A stretch of 64,000 nt of DNA from an uncultured Chlamydiales bacterium (lineage in GTDB: Bacteria > Chlamydiota > Chlamydiia > Chlamydiales > Rhabdochlamydiaceae): contig OY969554.1 in assembly GCA_963700985.1 (NCBI GenBank), positions 32,001 to 96,000 on the forward strand, in the 5' to 3' direction. Position numbers and translations under genes: made by a program. Under the pieces are notes generated by a model, which saw only the letters and a list, made by a program, of their open reading frames with translations, was not told where the DNA came from and did not search any database. Position 1 is the first letter of the stretch; each line of letters begins with the position of its first letter. Below, one piece after another: positions 14,684 to 54,139 of the stretch.

Positions 14684-17600
14684 ATGCGGAAATTTCTCTT
14701 TCTTTCCCTCATGTTTGCTGTGCGCGTAATGGCCGATCTTAAAGATCCCTCCGTGCTAGCAGCAACGGATGGCGATCCACAAGTTACAGTTAGCCAGCAT
14801 GTAAATGCATTAACAGGCGACTTTACGCGCTTTCAAGATGATTATGTCGTTCCTGGCATAGAGCCTATTTCCATTCGGCGCATCTATGTTAGTGGTGATG
14901 GCGCGGGGGAGAACACCTGGCAGTTTTTCCCTCAGACAAAGCTCTTTTTTCTCACAGGTTCTTATACGCCACGCATTGTGGTTGGTCAGCCCTCAGGATC
15001 TTTTCTCACTTATAAGTTTAAAAAGCATCGCAAGCCCGATATCTATTTGCCCGATCTAGAAAAGCATGGCAAAGGCGTTACGAATACAGCGCACGGAGTG
15101 ATTTCGGGACGGACGAATTTTAAAAATAGCAAGGTGGTTCAACTGCGCAACACGCTCTATCAGCTGACGTGTGCAGACGGCACCGAGAGGGTTTATAAGA
15201 ATAAAAAAGGAGAGGGCATAAAAAAATATCTATTAGAGCACGAGCGTCTGCCAAATCGAAATCAGATTTTCTACGAATATGACGATAAATTAAGACTCAC
15301 CTTAATCAAAACCACCAATCCATCCGCCAGTAAAATCTATGCATGGGCGCGTTTTCGCTACCTTGATCAGAAAGAGCCTTCTGCCGACTTCAACATCGAG
15401 ACGAGCGATGGGAAAGTGCTGGAATATCGTTTTGCGAAAGAAGGAAATGAGCAGATTGGGTTTCACACCTTTCTAAAATCGGTTAATCCTCCTGAAAAAC
15501 CAAAAGAGATCTTCGAATATTCGAAGACAGGTAATTTTATGAAAAAGATCTTTTTTCCTGAAGGAAGAGAGATTCTTGCCGATTATTATAAAGGTGGTAA
15601 AAACACCGTTCTTGGTCGAGATGTCAAGCTTAATCCCAATGACTCACGTAATGGGCGTGTTAAGATTCTCTACGAGCAAGTAGGCCCTAATAACGAACAG
15701 ATCGGCGCCAGCTATTTTTTCTATTCGATTCCCAGAGAAGAGAAGCATGGAGAGTATTTCTATAAAGAGGGGACAACAGAGGTTGTAGATGCAATGGGAT
15801 GTAAAACGATCTTTCGTTTTACCCCATCTTTTTATCCTACCTCCATTGAGAGCTATGATGAGCGTGGCCAGCATCATCATTCTGTGCAAATGACATGGAA
15901 TCACATCGGAGAAATCCAACGTAAAACACTTTTAGACGCAGATCGAAAGGAGGTTTGGACCCGCGAATTTTTCTATGATGAAAAAGGAAATGTGATCGAA
16001 GAGAGATTTAGCGGTGATCTCTGTGGCAGGGGGCAAAGAGAGACATACAGCAAGCGCATAAAATACACGCCTAACCATCTCCCAACTCGTATTGAGGAAG
16101 ATAATGGTTCAGTTACACTCTTTTCTTATCTTGCAGGCACGCCATTTATCACCGCGCAGCTTCAATGCGAGGGAGAGAAAATTCTGAAACGGGAGTTTCA
16201 TGAGTATGATGCAGATAATCTGCTGGTGCGTACGATTAGCGACGATGGCAATAGTTCTGAAAAGGAAAATCTAACTGCGGTTACCTACCGCAAGATCACA
16301 CAGATTCAGCGCAAGCAAGCAGCGCCAGCTCTCGGATTTCCCGAAGTAATCGAGCAGAGATATCTAGACCTAGCTTCCTCAACGGAGGTGCTGTTAAGTC
16401 GGCAGACTTTCACCTATCAAGGCGATGGCAAGCTGAGCCGACGAGATATTTATGATGCAGAGGGTAACTTTTGTTATAGCCTGCATACAAGCTATGACTC
16501 GATGGGGCGGCCATGCGAAGAGTCTAATCCTCTTGGCCAAATTCAAAAAACTAGATACGACGTTTTTGGAAACCCCACCTATCAAGAGAGCTTTAGTGGG
16601 CAGCTCACCACAGAACTTGTCTATGACAAAGCGAATCGTTTATCTCATGCTAAAGAGGTTGGTCGGGATGGCCTCATACATATCAATCAGTTTTCCTATG
16701 ACGTGAAGAGCCGAAAAACAGCTGCAATTGATCATTTTGGAAACATCACTCACTTCAAACTTAACCCGATTGGCAGCAGCCTAGAAACACATCTTCCTGA
16801 AGCTGCTCCCTGGAAGATGCAAACAACTTCTAACTTCGATGGATTAGGCAGAGAAATTGTAAAAATCGATGAGCGCGGAGATGCGACTAGATTTTCATAT
16901 AACGCCTATGGAAAACCCACGCGCATTCTCTATGCAGATGGTTCTGCCGAGCAGTTTTTTTATGATAAAAATGGAGCGTTAGCCGAAAAGCTTGATCAGC
17001 GTGGCAGCATTACAGCTTTTACATATGACGTATTTGGCCGAGAAGTAGAAAAGCGCATCTATGATGAAAAGCGTGCGCTGCTGATTCAAGAGACGAGCAA
17101 GTATAAAGGTGATCTGCTTGTGCAGCATGTAGATGCAGTTGGGCACGAGATGCGCTATCTATATGATTTCGCTGGCAGACAAATTGCTCAGGAAAATGAG
17201 TTTCAGCGCATTGAATATGCGTATGATGCCTTGGGGCGAAAGCGCAAGACTTTGACCTCAGATGGAAACCACACGCTTCACAGCATAAAAGAGTATGATT
17301 TCTTAGAGCGCGTGCTTGAAGAGCGTTGTGAAGATGACAGCGGCCAAGTTTTGAAAAGAGTTCTCTATGATTATGATGCAGCGGGCAATAAGTCTTGTAT
17401 TACGCGGTTCATGAGCGGTAGGGAAAGCCAAGAGCGTTTTTTCTACGATGCATTTAATCGCCTCATTGCACAAGTGGATGCCTCCGGTAATAAAACAACC
17501 ATAGAGCAAGATGAAACCTATCGAAATGCACAGACGCAGCAAGTCTTAAAAAAGATTACCACCGATGCGCGTGGCATGCACACCTATGAGACGTTTGATT

Positions 17601-41573: not shown

Positions 41574-41645
41574 AGGTTTTCTCCCTTGGTCTATTCTTCC
41601 ATATAAAATTAAAGAACAATTCTGCAAAACAAAAAAATCATAAGT

Positions 41646-41676
41646 GAGGTGGAGAGACGCTTTCAGAACTTTTGAT
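41646..41676 (+). repeat. ssrA-3'-end att-like relic A
   Basis: gaggtggagaga-cgctttcagaacttttgat; first 12 nt identical to the reverse complement of the tmRNA 3' end. Confidence 0.8.
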
Positions 41677-41756
41677 CATAAAAAATTGGAAGTTTTTATA
41701 GAATTTTTCGAATTGCAGTACTTATCAAACCGAAAAATTAAAAAGCAGGTTCAGCG

Positions 41757-42341
41757 ATGACATGTCTACCAATTTGCCTTGCTGCAGTGATCTATGCACT
41801 TACCGGAGGACCTTCTTCAGGCAAGACTTCTATCATCAAGGAATTAGAAAAGCGCGGGGAACCTGTAATTCACGAAGCAGCTACCGATTGGATTATTAGA
41901 AAAATAGAATCAGGGATTTCTGAGCCTTGGAAAGAGGAACGCTTTACTTTGGACATACTCAACATACAGCTTGAAAAAGAAGAGCCGTGGTTGCTTAGAG
42001 AGGGTAAAGTTTTTGTAGATAGAGGGGTTTTTGATATCTATCCTTTTGCGATGGCCAATGGGCTTGCAGGAACTAAAACCTTAGCTTGTGCGAATAAGAT
42101 CCTAAATCGAATTGATCTCAATCAGCGTTATAAAGCGATATTCTTTATCATGCCTCATTCCGAAAATTTCTCTACTCTTCAAAACGAAATTCGCAGAGAA
42201 AACACTCAAGATGCCGCCAAGTTGGAGGTTGCAACCTATGCAATCTATTGTAGGCATGACAATTTCATCGTGGTTCCGGGTGGAATGTCTCCTGCAGAGC
42301 GCGCAGATTTCATTTTGGAAAAAATATGCGAACTAGAATGA
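41757..42341 (+). CDS. NadR/Ttd14-type (AAA_28) P-loop NTPase
   Basis: ALTGGPSSGKTS; IHEAA; FVDRG. Confidence 0.8.
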   Translation: MTCLPICLAAVIYALTGGPSSGKTSIIKELEKRGEPVIHEAATDWIIRKIESGISEPWKEERFTLDILNIQLEKEEPWLLREGKVFVDRGVFDIYPFAMANGLAGTKTLACANKILNRIDLNQRYKAIFFIMPHSENFSTLQNEIRRENTQDAAKLEVATYAIYCRHDNFIVVPGGMSPAERADFILEKICELE

Positions 42342-42362
42342 AAAGAACCTAGTAATGAGGTT

Positions 42363-42395
42363 TGAAGAAGGAGAGACACTTTCCGAATTTTCGAT
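42363..42395 (+). repeat. ssrA-3'-end att-like relic B (degenerate)
   Basis: tgaagaaggagaga-cactttccgaattttcgat; downstream intergenic DNA also resembles that after relic A. Confidence 0.65.
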
Positions 42396-42454
42396 TATGA
42401 AAGATTAAGAAGGTTTGGCACTATTTCTTATTCATTGAAGGGCCAGGTTCAGAA

Positions 42455-43255
42455 ATGAATTATCAAACCCCACAACCAAATAGACAGCTATTTATGTACG
42501 ATATCCAAGTCAATCATGTTTACTTCGTCGTCGACAGAGAAACTTACGAGGCGATTAAGGGTTCTGATTTCGTTCGATCTCTGGCCTCTACCTATGAGCA
42601 GAAAAACTCTACAGACAATCAGACTGGTTGGGAGGGGTTTTACATACGAGGCAAAAATACTTTTGTTGAGCTTTTCTATCCGCAAGATCGTTATCCATCC
42701 ATTGGGATTTCAGGAATAGGTATGGGGGTCGATTATATAGGGGGGCTGGCAGCAATTTCAGAACGTCTGCAAAAAGATCTTCCAAACCTCAATAGAGGGG
42801 CTTTTAATCGTCAGGGAAAGCCTTGGTTTGAGTATCTAGCTGTAAATGATAGTTACTTTTACGAGAAAAATTCTTTCTGGATCATGGAATATGCACCCCA
42901 ACATTTTTCAGAAAATTCAGAAAATGTTTCTAGGGCGCATTATAACTCAGAGAAATATGATCCTAATAAACCTTTCCTAGACATCACAAAATTTGCCGTG
43001 GCGCTGCAGCCTGAGGGTCGTGATACCCTTTCTACTTATCTCAAAAGTTTTGGGTTACGTGCGCAAGATGACTCATACATGACTTCTGAAAATATAGAGA
43101 TTCAGCTGGTCGATGAGGATGAAAAACGTAAGGGAATTTACCAGATCGATTTCTCTCTCAAAGAAAAGCTTCGAGAAAATTATTCCTGCCGGCTAGGAAA
43201 TTCTCAGTTGACCATCCAAGGAAATAAAGGCTCGTGGATTTTCTTTAAGAAGTAA
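42455..43255 (+). CDS. Glyoxalase/VOC-like protein (DUF5829-like)
   Basis: NHVYFVVD.ETY.AI, WEGFYIRGKNTFVELF, WIMEY; true start may be 42494. Confidence 0.65.
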   Translation: MNYQTPQPNRQLFMYDIQVNHVYFVVDRETYEAIKGSDFVRSLASTYEQKNSTDNQTGWEGFYIRGKNTFVELFYPQDRYPSIGISGIGMGVDYIGGLAAISERLQKDLPNLNRGAFNRQGKPWFEYLAVNDSYFYEKNSFWIMEYAPQHFSENSENVSRAHYNSEKYDPNKPFLDITKFAVALQPEGRDTLSTYLKSFGLRAQDDSYMTSENIEIQLVDEDEKRKGIYQIDFSLKEKLRENYSCRLGNSQLTIQGNKGSWIFFKK

Positions 43256-43416
43256 GAGCGTGTTTACAAACTAGATCTTCTCTATGAGGTAAATTCCTTT
43301 CAATTACTGCGTTAAAATGCGCATAAAAACCTCTTGTTTATATAATAATTTTAGCAATGAGGCGTAAATAGCATCTCTATTATAATGATCTATGTTTAAA
43401 CAAACGGAGAAGACAG

Positions 43417-43539
43417 ATGCGTAGTATAATTTTTTTTATGATTGCTCTGCTTGGTGTAAGTTCAATGCTACAAGCCAGTGATATGACTCCTGAAGAGGCG
43501 CAAGAAAGAGCTCGAATCGTAACGATGGGCGGCGATTAA
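43417..43539 (+). CDS. 40-aa ORF with signal peptide (small secreted peptide or truncated gene)
   Basis: GGAGA RBS; MRSIIFFMIALLGVSSMLQA-SDMTPEEAQERARIVTMGGD*. Confidence 0.5.
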   Translation: MRSIIFFMIALLGVSSMLQASDMTPEEAQERARIVTMGGD

Positions 43540-43553
43540 GTAGTAAAAGACCG

Positions 43554-43622
43554 TTAAAGAGGGCATCGACAAGTCGATGTCTAACAGAGCGCAGACAAGT
43601 CAGCGCACTCCAAAAAAATGGC
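43554..43622 (-). repeat. REP-like arm (right-arm orientation)
   Basis: gggcatcgacaagtcgatgtcta...gcgcagacaagtcagcgcactccaaaa. Confidence 0.85.
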
Positions 43623-43628
43623 GTGGCT

Positions 43629-43946
43629 CTACTTTTTCTTTGGAAGGGGAAGTGCAGAAGCAGTTAGCTGAATCAGCTCTGCAAGCCATTTCTTATCGCT
43701 CCATTTCTCTTCTGGAATAAGAAAATAGGGCTTGGCGCCCGGATAGGGAAAGCCTTCCAATATTTTTCCTATGAACTGTTCTCCCACTTCTGTGGGCTTT
43801 ACGAACAATTGATCGTCGCAAACCAATGCAATGATCTTCTCATCGCAATAAATTCCGTATTCACCGAACATCTTTTTCGCGCGAATTTCCCCAGCTGCTT
43901 TCATTTGTAAAACAAGGAAATCTATCGTCGATTGCTTTGAACTCAT
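43629..43946 (-). CDS. TfoX N-terminal domain protein
   Basis: KKMFGEYGIY.D.KIIALVCDDQLFVKPT; PYPGAKPYF. Confidence 0.88.
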   Translation of the reverse strand: MSSKQSTIDFLVLQMKAAGEIRAKKMFGEYGIYCDEKIIALVCDDQLFVKPTEVGEQFIGKILEGFPYPGAKPYFLIPEEKWSDKKWLAELIQLTASALPLPKKK

Positions 43947-44314
43947 TTTTTCTTCTTTTTCCTACTTTGAATCAGCTGTTCCATTTCAGCTAATTCCGCA
44001 TCGGAAATCTCTTCCTCTTCGATTAAATGAGCAACGAGAGCCTTCATTCCGACTCCAGCGCACATCTGTTTGATTTTTGCTAAAAGAGAAGGAGGTGCCA
44101 CGCCCGTTTCTGGAAGCCAGTATTCATACTGAAGCCCCATACGTTCACGGCGCATTTGCTTTTTTTCTACAAGGCGATTCATCACTGTCATGATGGTGTT
44201 GTAATTATCTTTTCCACCTAGAAAGCGATGCATGTCTTTAACTGTAAGTCGTTGCTCCTTGTTCATGATCTGAAGGATCTGAATTTCGAGCTCTCCGAAC
44301 GCCCTTTTTGTCAT
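43943..44314 (-). CDS. BlaI/MecI/CopY family transcriptional repressor
   Basis: GELEIQILQI, TVKD, YNTIMTVMNRLVEK, ISDAELAEM. Confidence 0.88.
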   Translation of the reverse strand: MTKRAFGELEIQILQIMNKEQRLTVKDMHRFLGGKDNYNTIMTVMNRLVEKKQMRRERMGLQYEYWLPETGVAPPSLLAKIKQMCAGVGMKALVAHLIEEEEISDAELAEMEQLIQSRKKKKK

Positions 44315-44341
44315 AGTATTCCATTGGTTGCAAAGCAACTT

Positions 44342-44355
44342 ACTACATGCGTAGT
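44342..44355. promoter_or_regulatory. Probable BlaI/CopY-type operator
   Basis: ACTACATGCGTAGT palindrome; one mismatch to TACAnnTGTA; about 28 nt upstream of the repressor ATG. Confidence 0.6.
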
Positions 44356-44411
44356 TTTTTGGCAACGTTAAGTGAGGTGAAAAATATCTTTAAAAAACCA
44401 GTTATCGCTAC

Positions 44412-45053
44412 TTGTTTTATAGCGTTTTTCCCTGTAAAATCTTTGTCACAAAGAATAGAACGCGGTACATGATGGAAAGTTCAAATAATGATCTGCTGCT
44501 CGATACCAAATTGCAAATTTCTTTTCCTAAAAGCGATAAAGATCACCGGTTGCAGTTAGTGGAGATTAATGGATCCATTTTTGCGATTGTTCATTCTCCT
44601 TTAGAATCGCTCGGGCCAATTTGTCTCAACTGTGAAGAGTGGAGCCTGGTTCTTTTAGCTCCAATTAAGAGTAAGACAAACATATTAATTTCAGCGATCA
44701 ACGTCATCTGCCTTAACGAAATTGCCTCAGAAGAGGGAAATGTAAACGTACATGCTACTAACCGTCTGGTAAAATTCGCGCATTCGATGAAACCTCTTGA
44801 GAAAGTCTGCGAGATGGGGGAACGTGGTGAGTTCCAGTTCGATGATGATCCTGGCGCTTTTTTATATTACTATCGCTTGTTTGAAGGCATTGTCAGTAGC
44901 ATCCGCGAGGGAAGTTCCGCTTCATTTTCTGATGCACAGCAAAAGCTTATCATGTGCCTTTGCACACTTGCAGATAAAATTGAGAAAAAACCAGAAAATC
45001 TAAACCTTCACCAAGTTCTTGATATTTGGAATGTTCCCGCTTTGAAATCCTGA
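44412..45053 (+). CDS. Hypothetical protein
   Basis: 213 aa ORF; likely start near 44470 (MMESS). Confidence 0.55.
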   Translation: MFYSVFPCKIFVTKNRTRYMMESSNNDLLLDTKLQISFPKSDKDHRLQLVEINGSIFAIVHSPLESLGPICLNCEEWSLVLLAPIKSKTNILISAINVICLNEIASEEGNVNVHATNRLVKFAHSMKPLEKVCEMGERGEFQFDDDPGAFLYYYRLFEGIVSSIREGSSASFSDAQQKLIMCLCTLADKIEKKPENLNLHQVLDIWNVPALKS

Positions 45054-45063
45054 TTAACTTTCA

Positions 45064-45149
45064 GCCATCTTTTTTGGAGTGCGCTGACTTGTCAGCGCTT
45101 TCATAGACATCGACTTGTCGATGCCATAAAAAATTATCTCGAATTCTAA
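45064..45149 (+). repeat. REP-like arm (left-arm orientation)
   Basis: ttttggagtgcgctgacttgtcagcgct..tagacatcgacttgtcgatgc..aaaaattatctcgaattctaa. Confidence 0.85.
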
Positions 45150-45356
45150 ATAAACTTGAGGATTTGATTAGAGCAATGACTCAGCTGCGCGAATCGGTGT
45201 TTCCTTCGCAAAATGATGAGCAATAATCTTAAATCTGCGATTGAGGTAAAGTCTATGAGCATTCGGCTGATAGATTTGCAGGACATATGTACAAATATTG
45301 CTGAAAAAATTGTGAGGATGCAACCATAATCCCAACTTTTACTGGGAGGCTAATAT

Positions 45357-45977
45357 ATGTTTTCCGTTTTTTCCTATCTCGTTGCTTTCTTGTTCATGAT
45401 CTCATCCACATTTGCCGATCAGATCTTTTTGGATCGAGAGGGGAGGGAGATCCGTATTGCTCCAGTAAAATCCATCGATGAGATCGATCTCGCCAGAGGA
45501 AAAGAGATTTTAGTCAGCGCATTTATGAAGGGTTATGAAGATGTCCCTCTTGTCTTACTTGATCCCGAGTTTCAGTCGATTGGAGATGTGAGACGTTTTT
45601 ATGAGCGATATTTTGATAGTGAATTGGAGCATTTCAAGCATGGAGAGTTGATCTGGGTGCAGGCTTTTGAAGGCGAGAAGCTTTTGGGCTGGGCAACTTT
45701 TGAAATAGAGACAAATGACTCCGCCTACATGGATCTTCTTGCCGTCGACCCGGCCGAACAGAGAAGGGGAATCGGGCAACATTTGACCTTTTCTATTCGC
45801 TCGCCTGATCTATTTCCCAACATTCAGACGATCTCTCTTTTCATCCGCAAAGTAAATGCAAACGGCCGAAAATTTTATGAGGGAATGGGCTTTTCCGATT
45901 TTCAATCTGATCGGAAAGATAACTTCGTCGACCTCTCTCTTCTGACGGGGATGAAATGGTTTTATAATACGAAATAG
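45357..45977 (+). CDS. GNAT family N-acetyltransferase with signal peptide
   Basis: LAVDPAEQRRGIG motif A; N..GRKFYEGMGF. Confidence 0.85.
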   Translation: MFSVFSYLVAFLFMISSTFADQIFLDREGREIRIAPVKSIDEIDLARGKEILVSAFMKGYEDVPLVLLDPEFQSIGDVRRFYERYFDSELEHFKHGELIWVQAFEGEKLLGWATFEIETNDSAYMDLLAVDPAEQRRGIGQHLTFSIRSPDLFPNIQTISLFIRKVNANGRKFYEGMGFSDFQSDRKDNFVDLSLLTGMKWFYNTK

Positions 45978-46019
45978 CCTGCCGCTAGTGAGATTACATG
46001 TAGATCATCTAGTTGTGAT

Positions 46020-47168
46020 CTAGCAGCATGTAACACAGCAGCGAGGGGCTCTTTCGAAGGCTACAATAGCCCGATCATTCATGATGCCATCAGAGCTGAC
46101 ACAACTAACAAAACCCCACCGTTTAAGCGAATACTTGTCGATGTTATCCCGCAAATAAGGCAAGAATTCCTTTGCCCGTTTGGGATCGTCTTTTTTTAGC
46201 AACGCATCAATGATATAAGCGCTTCTAAAGACGTGGGCGCGGTTGACTGCTCTTTTTCTCAGTCGAGGTAGAAATTTTGCAAATAGATCAATCGCTTTCT
46301 CGATATTTTGTTCGAACACTAAAGAATCTAGAGGAGAAGATGGCCGTGCAAGATCGGAGCTTTGCTGCGGACGTGCAAACATTTTTCTTATCTCTTCAGT
46401 ATGCGTGAATAGTTCATCAAATGAGCTCTCTGGCTTTGGCAACAACCCTTCAATAAATCCTCCCCATACTTCTTTATACTGTTGAGGATGAGTGCAGCGA
46501 AAAATCAAATGATTGACAGCTAGATTTTGCATCCAGGCATAGGGTAAACAGTTTGCTAGCTTGATTGCGGACTCCACGCCTCTTTGATGTGCAGTGATAA
46601 TAAGCAAGTGGATCAAAGTACGTACGAGATACTTCGTTCTTGAATCAAACATATTACTTCGTGCAAGTTCAACTTCTGAGAAAAATGGCTCAATGGAAAA
46701 TGCAGCTTCATGAGCGCATGAGGGATGAGATAGCAGAAGAATTAAAGCATCGGCTTCTTTTTTGTGTTTAGCTAAAGTTGTAACGACCTCGTTAACATAG
46801 TGCATTTCGCTTCCAAAACGAGAACGTAAATAATACACATGTTTAACACTCTCCATAACCGAGTCTAAATAAGTGGCAATTTTAAATGCTGTTTGGAAGT
46901 CATGGTCTTCTAAATAGTGATTAAATTTGCCAATCAGCTTATCGATCAAGATCCTTTGACAAGAATCGGGAAAATTCTCTTCAAATGCTTCATTCGTCAA
47001 AACAGCAAGCTTTTCAAAAGAAGGTTGTTCCTCTTCTTTTAACTCAGGCAGGCTTCTTACGTAGTTAATGCACTCTTCTCGCTTGGCCGCCTCTGTGTCC
47101 AAAATGGGAAGAGAACATAGAGCTGTAGGCTGCAATGAAAGAGGAGAAGAAGAAATAATAGATGTCAT
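46020..47168 (-). CDS. Hypothetical helical-repeat protein ending in CCVTCC (candidate effector)
   Basis: Ser-rich N-terminus MTSIISSSPLS; C-terminal RAPRCCVTCC. Confidence 0.6.
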   Translation of the reverse strand: MTSIISSSPLSLQPTALCSLPILDTEAAKREECINYVRSLPELKEEEQPSFEKLAVLTNEAFEENFPDSCQRILIDKLIGKFNHYLEDHDFQTAFKIATYLDSVMESVKHVYYLRSRFGSEMHYVNEVVTTLAKHKKEADALILLLSHPSCAHEAAFSIEPFFSEVELARSNMFDSRTKYLVRTLIHLLIITAHQRGVESAIKLANCLPYAWMQNLAVNHLIFRCTHPQQYKEVWGGFIEGLLPKPESSFDELFTHTEEIRKMFARPQQSSDLARPSSPLDSLVFEQNIEKAIDLFAKFLPRLRKRAVNRAHVFRSAYIIDALLKKDDPKRAKEFLPYLRDNIDKYSLKRWGFVSCVSSDGIMNDRAIVAFERAPRCCVTCC

Positions 47169-47398
47169 AATTATCCTTATTTTTTGAATGATTATACACA
47201 TTAAATATTTAAAACAAAATCAAATAAATGTGTTTGATAGATATCTTTTCACGTAAAAATGGATATTGTAAAGTTCTATTTATAACGCACTATTGTAAAA
47301 ATAATTTATATCTGTAATGCGCTTATATTAAGCTGCTTACGCAGATCCTCACGGGGCTTTCGACAGACTTTGAGAATAGTATTTATTATTTTAAAAAA

Positions 47399-47432
47399 TG
47401 GGGGAGGAGAGATGCTATCAGAACTTTTAATC
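47399..47432 (+). repeat. ssrA-3'-end att-like relic C
   Basis: tgggggaggagaga-tgctatcagaacttttaatc; 12/14 match to tggaggtggagaga. Confidence 0.72.
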
Positions 47433-47498
47433 GAAAGCTGGCGCAATTACACCAACATCTTCATTCCTTTTTCATCACACGAGGTAACTATCGCAATC

Positions 47499-50400
47499 TT
47501 AAAAAGAATACCCAATTTTTCCGTAGAATTGATTGGAACTGTAACCGCTTCCAAATTCTCCGTTATAACTGGCGGAACTGAAAATATTCCAATTTGTTTG
47601 CCAAAAGAGTTCTACGGCAGGAGAAATGAGACTTTGCTCGGTGGTAAAGGCCTCGACAACAAAGGATGCAGGAGCGCTTACAATCGCTGCATTAAGATGT
47701 CCAACGTGATGAGGCTTTTTGTAGATATAGCTCAACTTCGCTTGTGCAATAAAAATTCCCCAGCTGAAAGTGGTAGTTTTATATCCATTGAGGCCTGTTT
47801 CTGATCGTAGCATCCATGAAGTTCTAGAAGGGAACTTCATATTGTATGGAGCCGCTCCTTTCTCTGAGTAGCTCGGATCCCATTCAAAGACCCAGTCTAG
47901 TAAACTAAAAGGTTCGATAGTTACTGTATTTATATTGAAATCGTATCCCGTGCCAAAATGAAGATCGAGTTGCTCTGCGTTGTAAGAGCTTCTAGCAGTC
48001 TCTTTAAAGCCTGGAAAAGAGATGATGCGTTTTTGTTCCACGTTCATATATTCGCCCCAAATGGCAGCATCGATGAAAAAATCGGAAAAAAATCTCATCC
48101 CGTAGACGCTGAGATAACCTGCATCTAGGTGACTATTCCCCATAGATTGATGTTCATGAATCGATGAGTGAGCATACCCTGCGAGCGCACCGATGCATCC
48201 TTGATCAGTATTGCCATAATCATAGGCTGCAAAAAAACCACCGCTGTTGAAATCAAAAGTGGGGGTTTGATCTTGAGAGTTCTGACGGCTGAATTGACCA
48301 AAGCCCATTCCCCAAAGTTGAGAGCTGGTGTTTTTAGGCGGAGCATAAATCGCTCTAAGAGGGGATTGATTGTCTGCTAAAAGTTCATTGTAAGCTAAGA
48401 AGGCTGTATCTTTTGCATGGCTTTTTTTGCCTTCATTACGCGCAAGGCGTCTTTTGGTAAAATGCGAATCGAGCGATTCGGAAAACATGAACATAACGTT
48501 TTGCGCAACAAATGTAGGAATTGAGTTCCTCGAAGGGCTGATGGATTTAAGGGCATTTTGATACTGGGAGGAAGAGAGGTCGTTTAAAAGATCAAATTGC
48601 TCTGTCAATCCCAACGAATCAGCATCTGGGGCTAGAGTATTGAGGTAATTGGCAACTCTTAAGTTGTTGCCTCTGAGGCCTTGCGTAGAAAGACTGGGAA
48701 GGGAAGGGGAGAAACCTAAAAAATCAAATTGGACAAATGTAGGAGTTCCCATCGGTAGATAGGCGAGCGAATAATTCGGAGTTTTCCCCGTAAAAGCAAC
48801 GGAATCAAAAGTGTCTGTAATGCCAGATGAAGTGAGAACAGTATATGTTCCAGGCTTAGCAGTTGAATCTAAGTCGATTTCTAAGATACCTGCGAGCGTT
48901 GCTGTTCCACTAACGGCAACTAAAGATGTGCCACTGGAATCGATCCCGATATGAACAAGGCTTCCCAAGGTGCCGTCAACTGGATCTGCAGAATTTAGGA
49001 GCAAACTGCCAAGAGTAAGTGTTCCGCCATTGTCTGGAGAGATCGTTCCCGAGTTGACTAAGACGTTTCCGGTCAAGGTCCCGATTCCGCTCAACATACC
49101 TCTTTGCGAGCTAATGATTGTTTCTCTACAGACGGAAACCGGTGCTTCGTTGATCGCTCCATTCACTTTAAAATTCGCATTCCTGATTGTGATGCTTCCT
49201 TGATAATCGGTGGTTCCGTTGTAAACAACAGTTCCATTTCCTGTGACTATGACAGATGTTCCTCCTGCGTTGAAAGAGGTGTCGTCAACAAACGCAACTT
49301 GCTCACCGAGAGTCAAAAGATCACCAGTATCGTTTGCTGTAAGTGTGAGAGATGCCCCTTGGCGTAAAAAAATACTATTTCCCCACATCAACGTTGATCC
49401 ATCAGTGCCATCTGTCCCTCCAGGGCCGCCCGTTCCATGCGTTCCCGCTTGGGTTGTATTATTTGATGTATTGAAAATGGTTGGGATTCCCGAGAACGCT
49501 TGAATATTGAGATTCACATTGCTATCCACAAAGATAGCGCCTCCAAGGCCGCTTCCGCCACCACCACCTCCGCCACCGAAACCCGTTCCGACGCTATTGG
49601 CGCCAGCCCCTCCAGAGCCGCCACCGAGGTTTCCTATATCAGATCCGCCGGGGGTATTGGAAGAGTTAGAAGGTCCACCGCCGCCACCACCACCACCGCC
49701 TAAAGAATTGCCCCCTCCAGCAGGCGTGGTACCAGATTGGTCGGCGCCACCACCGCCTCCACCACCACCAATTCCTCCGGAACCGCCTTGTACAGTATAA
49801 TTGATATCGTAAGCGCCCGTACCCGCGCCTCCGCCCCCACCTCCACCATAGCCACCTGTTCCAGCTTGTCCGTCAATTCCATTTGTAGAAGGCGTTACAA
49901 CAACTCCACCACCACCGCCACCGCCTCCATCTCCGCCATTACCTCCGGAAGGTAGTGCGCTGCCTCCTGGTGCTATTTGCCCTTGAGGCAGGGTTCCATT
50001 CATTCCTGCGCTTCCACCACCACCACCGCCTGCTGGAGTTCCACCACCACCACCGCCGCCACCTGCTGTGTTTCCTCCGGAGTTACCTCCTCCACCAGCA
50101 CCAGCAAGAATTGCGAGACCATCACCATTTCCATCAAGGCCGGCATTTTGATCGGAGCCCCCAGTCCCCAGATTCGTGAGCGTTGGGATGGTGGCGCGCG
50201 ATCCAAGGCCGCCACCGCCACCACCACCGCCGCCGCTGTTGTCAGTTGAAAGAGTGACATCTCCACCATCTCCACCAAAGCCACCACCACCTCCTCCTCC
50301 AGTGCTTCCTGTGGTCGTAATAGAACCCCCATTTCCGCTAAAGCCCCCACCGCCGCCGCCGCCCTCATCGCCCGTGGGAGATGAGATGCTTAAATAACTT

Positions 50401-50945
50401 CCTCCGTTTCCGCCGACAGCAGAGCAGCTGTTGATCGAAACATTCATCAAGGTGATCGAAGGATTCGAACCATTTAAAAAGGTTTGAGGTGCGTAAATGG
50501 CGCCCCCAGCACCCAAGCCGCCGCCGCCGCCCGAAGTACCATCTCCACCATCGCCGCCTTTTGCTCTCAGGTTTTGAAAGGTCATGTTTTGGATCGTCAC
50601 ATTCCCCATGGGGACAAAAAGACCGCTGTAAGTGCCATTATTGCCGTCAATTGTGACTGTGGGAATAGAGCCTGAATTGCCAATCGTGATATTCACAGGA
50701 TTTGAGGAGTTATTGATGATCGGCAGAATCCCATTGAGCTGTATCATCATCGGAGGATTGGCAAAAACAATCGCATAATCATCAGGTGTCGTACTTAAAC
50801 TCTCATTCATTGTATTCAAGCAATATCTAAGATCGCCCGTCAATCCCATGCTGCCCGGCTTACTGTCCGAGCTTTCAGTTACAATAAGCGTTGTTAAAGC
50901 GAATAAGGAATTTGAGGCGAATAAAAAAATGCAATATTTGAACAT
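47499..50945 (-). CDS. Autotransporter with glycine-rich passenger domain
   Basis: Signal peptide; poly-Gly tracts; GGAIY/GGAIF motifs; beta-helix-like linker; C-terminal barrel ending GKIGYSF. Confidence 0.9.
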   Translation of the reverse strand: MFKYCIFLFASNSLFALTTLIVTESSDSKPGSMGLTGDLRYCLNTMNESLSTTPDDYAIVFANPPMMIQLNGILPIINNSSNPVNITIGNSGSIPTVTIDGNNGTYSGLFVPMGNVTIQNMTFQNLRAKGGDGGDGTSGGGGGLGAGGAIYAPQTFLNGSNPSITLMNVSINSCSAVGGNGGSYLSISSPTGDEGGGGGGGFSGNGGSITTTGSTGGGGGGGFGGDGGDVTLSTDNSGGGGGGGGGLGSRATIPTLTNLGTGGSDQNAGLDGNGDGLAILAGAGGGGNSGGNTAGGGGGGGGTPAGGGGGGSAGMNGTLPQGQIAPGGSALPSGGNGGDGGGGGGGGVVVTPSTNGIDGQAGTGGYGGGGGGGAGTGAYDINYTVQGGSGGIGGGGGGGGADQSGTTPAGGGNSLGGGGGGGGGPSNSSNTPGGSDIGNLGGGSGGAGANSVGTGFGGGGGGGGSGLGGAIFVDSNVNLNIQAFSGIPTIFNTSNNTTQAGTHGTGGPGGTDGTDGSTLMWGNSIFLRQGASLTLTANDTGDLLTLGEQVAFVDDTSFNAGGTSVIVTGNGTVVYNGTTDYQGSITIRNANFKVNGAINEAPVSVCRETIISSQRGMLSGIGTLTGNVLVNSGTISPDNGGTLTLGSLLLNSADPVDGTLGSLVHIGIDSSGTSLVAVSGTATLAGILEIDLDSTAKPGTYTVLTSSGITDTFDSVAFTGKTPNYSLAYLPMGTPTFVQFDFLGFSPSLPSLSTQGLRGNNLRVANYLNTLAPDADSLGLTEQFDLLNDLSSSQYQNALKSISPSRNSIPTFVAQNVMFMFSESLDSHFTKRRLARNEGKKSHAKDTAFLAYNELLADNQSPLRAIYAPPKNTSSQLWGMGFGQFSRQNSQDQTPTFDFNSGGFFAAYDYGNTDQGCIGALAGYAHSSIHEHQSMGNSHLDAGYLSVYGMRFFSDFFIDAAIWGEYMNVEQKRIISFPGFKETARSSYNAEQLDLHFGTGYDFNINTVTIEPFSLLDWVFEWDPSYSEKGAAPYNMKFPSRTSWMLRSETGLNGYKTTTFSWGIFIAQAKLSYIYKKPHHVGHLNAAIVSAPASFVVEAFTTEQSLISPAVELFWQTNWNIFSSASYNGEFGSGYSSNQFYGKIGYSF

Positions 50946-50995
50946 GAGAGATCTCTAATTATTTTTTGTCACAGTATTGGGTAAAAAAGAATTGT

Positions 50996-51868
50996 TCAAG
51001 GCTTAAAATTCGGAAGAGAGGAGTATTCGAATTTATGAGGAATGTAGTTAGGTCTCATAGCAAATGCGATGGTTGCATATCGAATTTTGCCGCTTTGCGT
51101 GACAATGTGAGGAGTTGGATAGATCGAAAATTCAGTTAGAAGCACTCCGGGAATAAGGAGGATAGAGTTTTGATTAGGCCTCCTTGGAAATTCTCTTAGT
51201 GGAGATGAAAAATCATCGACTGAGAATGAGGATTTATAAGGAGAAAGAAGCAGCGATTGATTGTCAGTGCTATCGAGAAAAAGGGAAAACGCAGCGCCAT
51301 CGTAATGCGGTCTTGTAGCGATGTAAGAGGGGAGGTATTTGATTACTTTGAAAAGGATGGGAGGATGACCATATTTCGAAGAGAAAATCGTTTCTATGCC
51401 TAACTCAGCTGCCGCCTCATCGAATAGATATTCGTATGATTTTTGGATCTCGTGACAAGCTTCAAAAAAATGGATGATTTGGCGAACTTGATTGAATTCT
51501 GGGAAGAGGGAGCAAATAAACTCATGGAAATGGATCGAATAGTAGAAGGAGATCTGGTTTCTTCCTTCTCTTTTTGACTCGTCGTAGAAACCAAAAAAAT
51601 CAGTGGAGTAATAAGCTCTATCTTTTGTGCGAATAAAACGCTCTTTTGCGATGTATAATTTTTGTGCCCAAACTGGATTTGTTTGAAGAAATTCGATGAG
51701 TTCATCGAAATATGCATAAAGAGAATCGAACGTTTCCGTTCCATGCTGCTTATCGCAAATTTCTAAATAACCTGTTCGCTTAAATTGTTCTGCAAGAGGT
51801 GCAGCACAAAAAGATGGAAATGCAAATAAAAGCGAAACCCATAGAAACAAAGTCTTCTGGACTTTCAT
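50996..51868 (-). CDS. 2OG-Fe(II) oxygenase superfamily protein with signal peptide
   Basis: PHYD (HxD), PTPHIV (distal His), RYATIAF. Confidence 0.7.
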   Translation of the reverse strand: MKVQKTLFLWVSLLFAFPSFCAAPLAEQFKRTGYLEICDKQHGTETFDSLYAYFDELIEFLQTNPVWAQKLYIAKERFIRTKDRAYYSTDFFGFYDESKREGRNQISFYYSIHFHEFICSLFPEFNQVRQIIHFFEACHEIQKSYEYLFDEAAAELGIETIFSSKYGHPPILFKVIKYLPSYIATRPHYDGAAFSLFLDSTDNQSLLLSPYKSSFSVDDFSSPLREFPRRPNQNSILLIPGVLLTEFSIYPTPHIVTQSGKIRYATIAFAMRPNYIPHKFEYSSLPNFKP

Positions 51869-52055
51869 GAGTTAATCGTATGATTTGTTCTTTGAATTTG
51901 TCAAATTTTTCGAGTAAGAGCAAGCTCATCTTATATTCTCTGCTGCTTGCAACAGAGAAGTGCAGTAGGATATGCAAGAAGTCTATTAAAGATCAAAATG
52001 CCCGTAGAAATCTTTAAAAGAGAAAATCCGATGTATTTTTAGAAACACGTGGAGA

Positions 52056-52412
52056 TTGTTTATGACAGATTTACCTAAATGCGCCAAATGCAGTTCTGAA
52101 CACACATACGAAGATGGAGTTTTGTATATTTGTCCAGAATGTGGTCATGAATGGGCTATCCATGCTGAGAAGGAAGGTGAGACGGCGCAGCCTGTTGTAA
52201 GGGATGCGTATGGAAACATTCTCCAGGACGGTGATAGTGTGACGATTATCAAAGATGTAAAGGTCAAAGGATCGTCATCGGCTTTAAAAGTCGGTGTAAA
52301 AGTGAAAAATATTCGTCTGGTGGATGAGGTCAACGGCCACAACATCGAAGCGAAGATTCCTGGATTCGGTACGATGATGCTCAAATCTGAGATTGTTAAG
52401 AAAAGCAATTAG
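52056..52412 (+). CDS. yjdM: PhnA/YjdM zinc-ribbon protein
   Basis: [41 protein letters not shown]. Confidence 0.9.
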
Positions 52413-52516
52413 CCAGCTTTTTAAACTTGGATTGGTTTTCTATTGGAGAATGTTTTTGAATTTTTAGAGGAGGCCCTTATTAGATTATCCGGAATTCCTG
52501 AATCTCTCTTTTAGGG

Positions 52517-52548
52517 TTGGAGGTAGAGAGCTGTATTTGGAACTCTTT
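52517..52548 (+). repeat. ssrA-3'-end att-like relic D
   Basis: ttggaggtagagag-ctgtatttggaactcttt. Confidence 0.65.
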
Positions 52549-52800
52549 TTGGAGTGCGTGCGACTTGTCGCCGCTTTCGTAGACATCGACTTGTCGATGC
52601 TCTAAAAATCATCTCGAATTCTAATGGAATCAATGTTTAAGCTCGTCACAGTCTCATAATGGGCTTTTGAGGTGTGCGTTTCAAACCAAATTGCAGAACA
52701 CCACTTGTATTGATTTGAGCTCGTAACAAGCTTATTAAAGAGGGCATCGACAAGTCGATGTCTACCAAGGCGCTGACAAGTCAGCGCACTCCAAAAAAGA
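52545..52800. mobile_element. REPIN/MITE-like element: two ~55 bp inverted REP-like arms around a ~140 bp spacer
   Basis: Left arm ttttggagtgcgtgcgacttgtcgccgct..gacatcgacttgtcgatgc; right arm gcatcgacaagtcgatgtc..gcgctgacaagtcagcgcactccaaaa. Confidence 0.75.
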
Positions 52801-52829
52801 TAACTTTGAAATAGAGTTTTGTTAAAAAG

Positions 52830-52893
52830 AAAAAGCCGGGAAGTTATCCTGGCCTTAGTATTGGAGGTGGAGAGACACATTCAGAACTTTTAA
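52830..52893 (+). repeat. ssrA-3'-end att-like relic E with a copy of the ssrA terminator
   Basis: aaaaagccggg..cctggcctt then tattggaggtggagaga (17 nt identical to 53764-53780) then cacattcagaacttttaa. Confidence 0.88.
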
Positions 52894-52928
52894 CCGGAGG
52901 TCAATCTCTGGTAAGTTCCGAATAACTC

Positions 52929-53384
52929 TTAGTGAAGGGCGGCCCTATTTCCAGCGAAAGCCTTTACTGTTCGTATAAAAATTTCCTGGCTTTTGAGCAT
53001 TTCGATAAACTTGTCCTTTTCCTGCATGTTAGATTCAGTTAAATATCCGAAGATTATTTTCTTTCGCTCGCCGGTGTTTAAATTGGGAAACGAAAACGTG
53101 TGATACTGGCTCCTTACATACATCTTGAACTCATGAGCTACTTTCAACTGCTCTTCCTGATCGATTGCATAGGACATCACAACGGAAGTGCAATCTGTGC
53201 TTAAATAGGGCAAAACCGATGTTTGCATCCCTTCTCTATAGGTTCGAGAATTTACCACGTGAGTTATAGCAGTCGCTGCGTCATTTACCTCGATTTTGGT
53301 AGGTTCTATGTAAGTCTTCACGCCCCAGAGATCGATCATAGGCAGGATTTCTTTCGGTTCCATTGCTTTTGGTATTGCTGTCAT
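52929..53384 (-). CDS. Hypothetical protein (short F-box-like helix LPYLSTDCTSVVMSY)
   Basis: 151 aa ORF between two att-like copies. Confidence 0.55.
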   Translation of the reverse strand: MTAIPKAMEPKEILPMIDLWGVKTYIEPTKIEVNDAATAITHVVNSRTYREGMQTSVLPYLSTDCTSVVMSYAIDQEEQLKVAHEFKMYVRSQYHTFSFPNLNTGERKKIIFGYLTESNMQEKDKFIEMLKSQEIFIRTVKAFAGNRAALH

Positions 53385-53497
53385 AAACTCTCTTTATAAG
53401 AATCTTAATTATTGTTTTTTTATTCAAAAAATGTATAAAACATGAGAAAATTTTACTGTTTTTTTGATTATTTTGCCATAAAAAGAACCTATCTAAC

Positions 53498-53735
53498 TAA
53501 AAAGGCCAGGTTTTACCTGACCAAAATGGAGTTGGGGAGAAGCCCTCGCGCTAAGGGCGATGCCCCTAGTCTACCGGGCCGGCTGCGGAATCACGGAGAA
53601 GGTCCAGTGGACCTTCGAAGTGCGGAGCAGGTGAGCCATTTATGGCGAACCGGGCTCGGTTGCACAGTGTGCAACAAACGAGTTCAACTCGATTCTCTCA
53701 CGCAAGGCAAACTGTTGCCTTGCTCACCTCCAATA
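53498..53735. other. Multi-hairpin element inserted at the tmRNA 3' end
   Basis: Stacked hairpins (gaaggtcca.tggaccttc; gttgcaca.tgtgcaac; gcaaggcaa..ttgccttgc), an inverted copy of the tmRNA 3' arm, and a direct copy of the 3' end plus terminator at 53498-53541. Confidence 0.75.
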
Positions 53736-53764
53736 AAAAAGGCCAGGTTTTAAAACCTGGCCTT
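53735..53764 (-). terminator. ssrA terminator
   Basis: aaggccaggtttt-aaaacctggcctt palindrome followed by a T tract on the minus strand. Confidence 0.8.
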
Positions 53765-53766
53765 AT

Positions 53767-54139
53767 TGGAGGTGGAGAGAATCGAACTCTCGTCCTTAGC
53801 AAACTCCCTATTAATGCCTACATGCTTAGTGTCTTTATTGTTACGTCGGCCCTGCTGAAGGACACCACACTAGAGACCAACGCTCTTCTTCTTATCTCGA
53901 ATTCTCCCTCGAAGAAGGGAAGAAGTTAGGAGATTCATACCAAGGTTGATGACGATAGTTACTAACGCTCTTGGTCAGGCCTTAGGCTATCGAGAGCTAA
54001 AAACGGTTAGGTTCTTAAGCTGCTAATAAGCACTCTTCAGTGTTATCAATTCTTGTTTTACCGGATGATTAAGGAGGCCAACCGATATCCTCCGCATGCC
54101 ACTAATACTTTGTTCCCAAGTCGAAACCTTTACACCCCC
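53767..54139 (-). ncRNA. ssrA: tmRNA; tag peptide (A)DNTEECLLAA
   Basis: 5' GGGGGTGTAAAGGTTTCGAC; 3' GAGAGTTCGATTCTCTCCACCTCCA with T-arm and G3-U pair; internal ORF ending GCA GCT TAA; CCA not encoded. Confidence 0.96.

Follow-up and report, generated by a model that had tools for sequence, protein, structure and literature searches.

We analysed a window of 64,000 nucleotides (nt) from an uncultured Chlamydiales bacterium of the Rhabdochlamydiaceae (contig OY969554.1, positions 32,001 to 96,000), in which ssrA, the gene for transfer-messenger RNA (tmRNA), is accompanied by five short repeats. These repeats are probably traces of mobile elements that a large serine recombinase (LSR) inserted at the 3' end of ssrA. 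This end faces the lower coordinates of the window, and all five copies (A to E) lie on that side, between 41644 and 52875, sharing 10-14 nt of the ssrA end. An earlier interpretation made from the letters alone (the sequence-only reading) had placed the five repeats and translated their peptides correctly; the reading frame it chose, however, is non-coding, and the true frame starts one base earlier. Each copy opens with a version of the block TGGAGGTGGAGAGA, ~14 nt that form the reverse complement of the last tmRNA bases (acceptor and T-stem 3' strand), and continues into an arm (CRCaTTCAGAACTTTTGAT) that is absent from ssrA. Identity with ssrA ends after the 14-16 nt block, and TATTGGAGGTGGAGAGA is common to the antisense ssrA 3' end and copy E. 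The 23-nt arm pattern GGAGAGACRCTTTCAGAACTTTT matches the plus strand of the window at 41651, 42370, 47406 and 52869 (at most 3 mismatches), four matches compared to 0.00 expected from 100 shuffles. The remaining copy, starting at 52518, is degenerate and shares 73% identity with copy E across 37 nt. Within the 2,067,302-bp genome the pattern was found only downstream of ssrA, with no match elsewhere at up to 4 substitutions. The only Rfam match in the window is the tmRNA itself, and the arms match no known RNA family.

Four same-genus genomes are syntenic with the window on the side of the ssrA body. Beyond the 3' end, the flank is conserved in the genus for only ~80 nt, to 53684, and the genomes diverge beyond, so that the variable region begins beside ssrA. 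Part of the array (the PhnA region, relic D and the adjoining repeat) is 92-96% identical in a same-genus genome, and this part is therefore older than the split from that genome. Among the 20 open reading frames (ORFs) between 37.7 and 55.6 kb, Pfam identified accessory genes (AAA_28, DUF5829, TfoX_N, a BlaI-like repressor, a GNAT acetyltransferase, an autotransporter and PhnA) and no recombinase of any kind, tyrosine integrases and integron integrases included. A search of the genome that holds the window gave neither an LSR homologue (E<=10) nor a PF00239 match (E<=0.01), while a control search with PF00239 was positive in 12 of 14 reference genomes.

The arm is widespread among relatives. 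It was detected in 20 of 41 related genomes, the own genome included (at most 3 mismatches), while a reversed-pattern control gave 2 matches; one of the twenty was rejected as a false match within a long ORF. One same-genus genome carries 13 arms, nine of them within ~14 kb downstream of its ssrA at gaps of ~0.5-6.6 kb. The sequence-only reading had expected the repeats to be stranded tails that give a handle on the enzyme, and indeed, tracing the arms into relatives led to the LSR. The representative P0001, a 525-amino-acid (aa) protein of a relative, has an N-terminal Resolvase domain (PF00239, 1.3e-14), followed by Recombinase (PF07508, 6.1e-15) and the zinc ribbon Zn_ribbon_recom (PF13408, 6e-09), all above cut-offs. 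Its ORF crosses the block as ..ECPTN-WRWR... The LSRs of relatives are 500-525 aa long and read through the 14 nt as ..PTN-WRWR; on entry into the block, all LSR ORFs examined read TGG-AGG-TGG-AGA (W-R-W-R). LSR homologues (E<=1e-5) were found in 17 of the 41 related genomes. An intact element in one relative (genome G013) spans ~8.5 kb and has 8 annotated ORFs, two of them unassigned; it encodes RhuM, a YbaK-like tRNA_edit domain, an EamA transporter, SpoVG, a primase zinc finger, AAA_25 and the LSR.

The end of the LSR gene depends on what follows the block. Integrated copies are read antisense into ssrA and end in WRWRESNSRP and a stop (..PTNWRWRESNSRP); attP-like and tandem junctions (..PTNWRWRDAFRTFDW..) continue with WRWRDAFRTFDW.. 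for 25-35 codons, and these codons are the arm. A junction census of 35 metagenome loci with 38 block sites showed a complete LSR ORF joined to the ssrA side at 14 sites and to the arm at 4. LSR fragments adjoined the ssrA side at 5 sites and the arm at 2, non-LSR sequence adjoined the arm at 8 and the ssrA side at 3, and 2 sites had other sequence on both sides. At loci L083 and L084 an LSR ORF or fragment runs into ssrA as ..PTN-WRWRESNSRP and stop; L064 reads WRWRDSNSRP and then 45 further codons, and at L063 and L047 what follows the block is a fragment of the ssrA 3' end instead of the gene (WRWRESNSMT..). The tandem array at L091 holds three old arms, then a first LSR gene with block and arm (WRWRDAFRTFDWSRVKIPSVLTSSTRVQRIT and stop), then a second LSR gene with block and ssrA (WRWRESNSRP and stop). 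As read from these junctions, attP lies within the last 25-35 codons of the LSR gene in the relatives, and integration appears to exchange that tail. The sequence-only reading had anticipated both points, including that the enzyme is probably a large serine recombinase: the ORF of the relatives crosses the block, and an attP outside the integrase gene, looked for in the relatives, was not found.

The family is broad. Among the best 120 of 1341 database matches, 44 end in an antisense tRNA T-arm (..WGRLDSNQRRPKSRDLQS..), 36 in the antisense-ssrA form WRW[RG][ED][SL]N[ST].., and 4 carry the attP-form FRTFxW tail; the ending is other or truncated in 35, and one protein ends in ..GGGEN. We also surveyed 80 loci from species-representative genomes. 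The LSR ORF ends in a tRNA gene on the opposite strand at 30 loci (Tyr, Thr, Leu, Met, Asn, His, Gln, Trp, Ser, Glu) and in an opposite-strand tmRNA gene at 17, together 47 of 80 loci with ten tRNA identities. No gene was called at 28, several of which show obvious T-arm antisense or attP-form tails, and 5 run off the contig. Closer relatives (at least ~56% identity) are Chlamydiota by record title, with a few metagenome-assembled genomes (MAGs) labelled Verrucomicrobia(e), 'bacterium' or 'uncultured bacterium'. Further out lie one Auribacterota record (59%), Patescibacteria and other candidate-phyla bacteria (41-52%), and single MAGs labelled Atribacterota, Gammaproteobacteria and archaeon.

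The frame chosen by the sequence-only reading (frame 1) gives EEGETLSEFSIMKD and a stop, GGGEMLSELLIESWRNYTNIF.., GGRELYLELFLE.., GGGETHSELLTGG.. and, at the intact tmRNA end, GGGENRTLV.., all as translated there. Since the DNA copies align without gaps, look-alike peptides arise in any frame, and their similarity alone says nothing on coding. The decisive evidence that the LSR frame is the coding frame is the continuity of the ORF across the block together with the substitution pattern beyond the arm. Just past the arm, variation looks codon-like in the frame TGG-AGG-TGG-AGA-GAC-GCA-TTC-AGA-ACT-TTT-GAT-TGG (W-R-W-R-D-A-F-R-T-F-D-W), which begins one base ahead of frame 1. In the 60 nt past the arm of six tails from one subgroup, the mean nonsynonymous rate (dN) is 0.204 and the mean synonymous rate (dS) 1.030, a ratio of 0.20 over 15 pairs in the LSR frame; frame 1 contains stop codons in all six. 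In relic A a TGA stands directly before the first codon of frame 1. Consequently, the enzyme does not end in GGGENRT at ssrA, as had been predicted, but in WRWRESNSRP, and its distal tail is [DG][ATK]FRTF[DNQ]W.. rather than G-E-x-x-S-E-L-L. The lone ..GGGEN homologue (..PIGGGEN) is out of frame with its relatives from ~13 residues before its end. Within the window, frame 1 stays open for 53 codons through antisense ssrA (53767-53929, plus strand; GGGENRTLVLSKL..). A 95-aa ORF at 53642-53929 was rejected as a gene: it is an artefact of reading the tmRNA gene antisense.

In the LSR frame the copies begin with VRWRDAFRTFDHKK.. (A), RRRDTFRIFDYER.. (B), WGRRDAIRTFN.. (C) and WRWRDTFRTFN.. (E), compared to WRWRESNSRP and stop at ssrA (Table 1). 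Tails A and B stay open until their TGA stops, which overlap the ATG of the next gene as ATGA (tail A, 41758-41760). Both share CAGGTTCAG just before these ATGs at 41757 and 42455, as had been noticed earlier, and in the LSR frame this stretch encodes Q-V-Q at the end of the tails. Such an overlap is not a general rule of the family: with an ATG-initiated ORF of at least 100 aa starting -80 to +200 nt from the tail stop as the measure, a same-strand ORF start lies near the tail stop in 18 of 51 arms (the scan pattern missed relic B). Relic C, whose tail reads WGRRDAIRTFNRKL.., is located where the autotransporter gene of the opposite strand has its 3' end. Relic D is directly abutted by a double-hairpin repeat resembling a miniature inverted-repeat transposable element (MITE). 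The tail of relic E (WRWRDTFRTFNRRSISGKF..) resembles a tail in a same-genus genome. A further stretch at 44369-44396, TAAGTGAGGTG, is 71% identical to the start of relic A over 28 nt and sits between the divergent BlaI-like gene and a 213-aa ORF; it could be a sixth, heavily decayed relic or a chance match, and is too weak to call.

Table 1. Positions of ssrA, the five relics and neighbouring features in the window.
Feature	Coordinates	Strand	Description
Relic A	41644-41760	+	block GTGAGGTGGAGAGA (41644-41657) and arm; stranded tail in the LSR frame VRWRDAFRTFDHKKLEVFIEFFELQYLSNRKIKKQVQR, then stop
Cargo gene, unit A	41757-42341	+	194-aa AAA_28 P-loop protein; start overlaps stop of tail A (ATGA)
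Relic B	42363-42458	+	degenerate block TGAAGAAGGAGAGA, first codon now TGA; tail RRRDTFRIFDYERLRRFGTISYSLKGQVQK, then stop (42366-42458)
Cargo gene, unit B	42455-43255	+	266-aa DUF5829 protein (Pfam)
Double-hairpin copy	43554-43617	+	
Double-hairpin copy	45067-45125	-	
Relic C	47399-47581	+	block TGGGGGAGGAGAGA and arm; LSR frame WGRRDAIRTFNRKLAQ.., open for 60 codons
Autotransporter gene	47499-50945	-	1148-aa autotransporter beta-domain protein; passenger with Gly-rich repeats
Relic D	52518-52560	+	degenerate block TGGAGGTAGAGAGC; TAG as third codon of the LSR frame; arm related to that of E
Double-hairpin copy	52562-52608	-	
Double-hairpin copy	52735-52798	+	
Relic E	52835-52978	+	terminator-like hairpin (52835-52855), perfect block TGGAGGTGGAGAGA (52862-52875); tail WRWRDTFRTFNRRSISGKFRITLSEGRPYFQRKPLLFV, then stop
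Current attB-like site	53740-53780	+	ssrA terminator hairpin (53740-53763) and block TGGAGGTGGAGAGA (53767-53780); LSR frame WRWRESNSRP, then stop
ssrA (tmRNA), integration target	53764-54139	-	ARAGORN and Rfam RF00023 (152 bits)

The arm may have a second role as a recombination site. Its near-invariant core TTCAGAAC resembles the antisense T-loop TTCGAAC of the target, and across different target classes the attP-form F-R-T codons are TTC-AGA-ACT or TT[CT]-CGA-AC[CT], that is TTC(A)GAAC, an antisense tRNA T-loop. In four of four pairs from three target classes, anchored on the shared block (one ssrA, one tRNA-Tyr/Thr-type, two tRNA-Ser), this motif stands 4-5 nt further out in attP than in the integrated form. 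The sections on att sites in Rutherford et al. (2013, PMC3783163) place the binding motif of the LSR zinc-ribbon domain (ZD) 5 bp nearer the centre in attB than in attP. The shift seen here, taken together with this rule, leads us to read the arm as a P' half-site in which TTCAGAAC would be a displaced T-loop mimic and putative recombinase-binding motif. The FRTF motif of the protein may then be partly a by-product of this DNA-site requirement.

We propose the following course of events. In a free or tandem element the LSR gene would run across attP, with ..PTN followed by WRWR from the 14-nt block TGGAGGTGGAGAGA, common to antisense ssrA, and with the next 25-35 codons (D-A/T-F-R-T-F-D/N-W..) encoded by the arm CRCATTCAGAACTTTTGAT... 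Integration would set the gene convergent with ssrA, provide the new end WRWRESNSRP and stop from antisense tmRNA DNA, and leave the old tail stranded at the far end of the element. The T-loop mimic, 4-5 nt further from the block, would supply the spacing by which LSRs tell attP from attB. Repeated integrations combined with internal deletions would have built the array, and in the own genome all LSR genes would have been lost, with five tails and cargo remaining. Read in this way, the window is an orphan array of stranded serine-integrase tails that holds relics only. We put the probability that the five repeats are junction relics (target-side flank, crossover block and arm) from serial integration of LSR elements at the ssrA 3' end at roughly 0.87. 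The repeats, the enzyme family, the continuity of its ORF across the block in relatives, the tandem arrays and the absence of the enzyme from this genome are direct observations; the particular relics in the window would, by the identity of their arms, be products of the same LSR family. A hairpin known from other genomes as the native ssrA terminator precedes several arms (for example at L001, L003, L007 and L015 and at the second arm of L005), a layout that would be expected of displaced target flank in front of element DNA. The terminator hairpin of ssrA itself (53740-53763 in the window, L040-L045 in same-genus genomes) shows paired changes between species of the genus that preserve the stem, and the 30 nt upstream of it are conserved.

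Several observations weigh against this interpretation or parts of it. The link between relics and enzyme runs through arm identity with other genera, and LSR homologues are absent from all six genomes of the window's genus (0/6; E<=1e-5). The present ssrA has on its 3' side its own terminator and the genus-conserved flank of ~80 nt and no LSR gene, so that some later event must have restored an attB-like site. The units A-to-B (~0.7 kb), D-to-E (~0.35 kb) and E-to-ssrA (~0.9 kb) are far below the size of an intact element, and so small a size presupposes large deletions or mobilisation in trans. Tandem arrays need recombination at hybrid sites, and canonical phage LSRs are not known to carry this out unless a directionality factor is present. 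A dyad-symmetry scan for the crossover gave best axes of only 9-12 matches in 26, inconsistent between attP-like sites, and we therefore claim no crossover position. The check for synonymous bias that the sequence-only reading had proposed was run over 40 unique arms and did not separate the frames: 30 of 90 changes are synonymous in the LSR frame (~17 expected, p ~0.001), and 25 of 62 in frame 1 (~15 expected, p ~0.007). In the window's own arms the bias is not significant. TTCAGAACTTTT is almost invariant across arms even at wobble positions, and the AGA-ACT in the arm is invariant, wobble positions included. The conservation of the arm thus probably reflects largely a constraint on the DNA site and is not proof of coding.

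The small units bring up the question whether they were ever autonomous. They could have been cassette-like elements of block, arm and one or a few genes, with no recombinase of their own, and an LSR encoded elsewhere or carried by a co-resident element would then have inserted them at ssrA in trans. The very small size of A-to-B, which holds one gene, and of E-to-ssrA would fit this, as would the intact tails A and B with their ATGA junctions to the next gene. Moreover, 10 of the 19 genomes with genuine arms (relatives and own) have no LSR homologue, among the LSR-free ones the same-genus genome with 13 arms, and 'cis-mobilizable' islands lacking a recombinase have been proposed for Dehalococcoides, as set out in the relevant sections of PMC3146451. 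Extreme internal deletion does, however, happen: at L051 of the same-genus genome G003 (16290-16318, minus orientation), nothing but AGCATCCAACCAAT lies between two blocks. This stretch is the final 14 nt of an LSR gene and by its sequence demonstrates an element deleted down to a recombinase stub. LSR fragments of all lengths adjoin blocks in the census, no circular recombinase-less unit was observed, and the ORF coupling seen at A and B recurs at only 18 of 51 arms. As a general account of the array, trans-mobilisation seems rather unlikely to us; for the window's individual small units, either origin, deletion remnant or trans-mobilised element, may apply.

Two other explanations fare considerably worse. 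Tandem tDNA-fragment repeats downstream of ssrA are a classical signature of tyrosine-integrase islands of the Islander type, according to the portions of PMC4383910 that treat it, and in that case the arm would be nothing but an arm-binding site of the integrase. The second, T-loop-bearing repeat class of relatives shows that other element types do use the site. The 20 ORFs examined around the array include no tyrosine integrase, though, at attP-like junctions the arm directly continues the coding sequence of a serine recombinase, and identity with ssrA stops at 14-16 nt instead of spanning the T-arm as element-supplied tDNA ends do; we consider such an origin very improbable. Even less can be said for frame 1 as the coding frame, with a recombinase ending in GGGENRT.. 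and a displaced G-E-x-x-S-E-L-L tail. The similar peptides, the synonymous excess and the single ..PIGGGEN protein speak in its favor, and it is already contradicted by the W-R-W-R entry of every LSR ORF one base earlier, by 36 WRW.. endings versus one GGGEN ending, by the stops in all six subgroup tails and by the TGA in front of it in relic A. Integron gene cassettes were rejected as a candidate as well, as no integrase was found in the window region, and the repeats of relatives carry on the coding sequence of a recombinase and do not form imperfect palindromes.

The T-loop-bearing repeats form a class of their own. At L051 (G003), L053 (G013) and L047 (G020) the ssrA 3' end is present twice, and the second copy takes in the true T-loop (TGGAGGTGGAGAGAATCGAAC..; 21-24 nt); the rows for G006, G019, G022 and G028 likewise show this class. 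In the relatives these copies lie ~1.3 to 10.7 kb from ssrA. They point to other ssrA-targeting element types, with a putative crossover further inside the gene, that would bring their own ssrA end and terminator. An integrase for this class was not identified in the two examples examined.

The array also contains a double-hairpin repeat of ~60 nt (GGCATCGACAAGTCGATGTC..GCGCTGACAAGTCAGCGC..CTCCAAAAAA), whose four copies form two inverted pairs. The first pair flanks 1452 nt with the TfoX_N, BlaI-like and 213-aa ORFs; the second flanks just 137 nt and is MITE-like. Double-hairpin copies adjoin arms in a same-genus genome, too. Many GGxGGx-type DNA repeats at 49.5-50.5 kb belong to the passenger region of the autotransporter, a homologue of which lies downstream of ssrA in a same-genus genome (75-80% identity). 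Two DNA sequencing runs matched the window, both represented by contigs of one soil-metagenome study, and no RNA run was listed. These contigs contain no block-to-block joints and hence give no sign of site-specific excision, although rare circles would be undetectable in contigs. Positions 52988-53431 are uncovered in both runs. One contig joins 52837 to 53679 and skips 52838-53678 (841 nt, with relic E and a 151-aa ORF). The ends of this gap are out of register with the blocks, so the form is not a product of site-specific excision; the contig is probably a co-occurring strain variant.

The ssrA gene of environmental chlamydiae is, in our interpretation, a reused landing pad for serine-integrase elements, at which short conserved relics outlast the enzyme. 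Since attP/attB pairs can be read from genomes and follow a simple motif logic, these integrases should be tractable, with predictable and universally conserved targets. For annotation, ORF-like short repeats beside tDNAs become recognisable as stranded integrase tails. A more speculative idea, to which we give clearly less than even odds, is that the swapped tail is a built-in switch. The attP-form tail of ~30 residues (..D-A-F-R-T-F-D-W..) and the six residues from antisense tmRNA would give rise to two distinct enzymes, of which one might, for example, be able to integrate and the other be silenced or biased towards excision; direction could then be controlled without, or beside, a separate directionality factor. 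In the DNA, the codons of the tail would at the same time act as a T-loop mimic with a 5-bp shift, and this would explain how the clade could spread over a dozen tRNA targets plus tmRNA in Chlamydiota and candidate-phyla bacteria. The family is in any case a natural one in which to ask whether a change in an integrase's own tail regulates direction.

The closest precedent is provided by the ssrA islands of Dehalococcoides with their serine recombinase DsiB. As described in the parts of McMurdie et al. (2011, PMC3146451) devoted to them, these islands stand in tandem with 20-bp ssrA repeats, the CcrB-like 540-aa DsiB always overlaps attL at its 3' end, some islands lack the integration module, and the authors judged the overlapping 3' part of the DsiB gene to be non-functional and divergent. 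Going by these parts, the shared features are the ssrA 3' end as target, tandem arrays, short direct repeats of the ssrA end, extra conservation beside the repeat, and the inclusion of islands without integration module. A recombinase ORF that overlaps the att repeat and stops beyond it is also found in our relatives (..PTN-WRWRESNSRP and stop). An LSR at the ssrA-proximal edge is present in relatives and missing from the window and its own genome. The systems differ in host (Chloroflexota there, Chlamydiota and relatives here) and in the position of the shared block. They differ also in DsiA and the conserved six-gene integration module, which the one element examined here lacks: its 8 annotated ORFs gave no Resolvase match to a second, DsiA-like small serine recombinase. 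In addition, the attP-form tail is conserved here (FRTFDW), with a dN/dS of 0.20 in one subgroup. The comparison of DsiB with the present LSR is drawn from the published description. In the literature searched, LSR genes that end in tRNA or tmRNA genes were found described only for Dehalococcoides ssrA, and no account of the present clade came to light; later reports may exist.

Among curated NCBIfam models, the enzyme matches CcrB of the SCCmec elements best, and CcrA/CcrB are likewise LSRs whose composite islands build up in tandem at the 3' end of one essential gene. At 94 bits against a cut-off of 900, however, the present LSR is no CcrB equivalog; its target is ssrA or a tRNA gene instead of orfX/rlmH, and no CcrA-like partner was found here. 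With the phage LSRs (A118/LI, phiC31, Bxb1) it shares the Resolvase, Recombinase and zinc-ribbon architecture, and its only solved relatives are A118 integrase chains (E ~3e-05). The shift of the T-loop-like motif may, in addition, correspond to the ~5-bp displacement of a binding motif, outward in attP relative to attB, that the att-site sections of PMC3783163 describe. As of 2014, by the account in the pertinent part of the Islander paper (PMC4383910), no serine integrase was known to use a tRNA gene. Unlike the phage enzymes, the present LSRs take tRNA and tmRNA genes as targets and carry attP within their own coding end. Intragenic attP sites occur in tyrosine integrases, namely IntP/IntX of Myxococcus phage Mx8 and the SSV1-type archaeal integrases, in which integration alters or splits the integrase's own coding sequence. 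Those are tyrosine recombinases, and the SSV1 gene is split in two, while in the serine recombinases described here just the last 25-35 codons would be exchanged.

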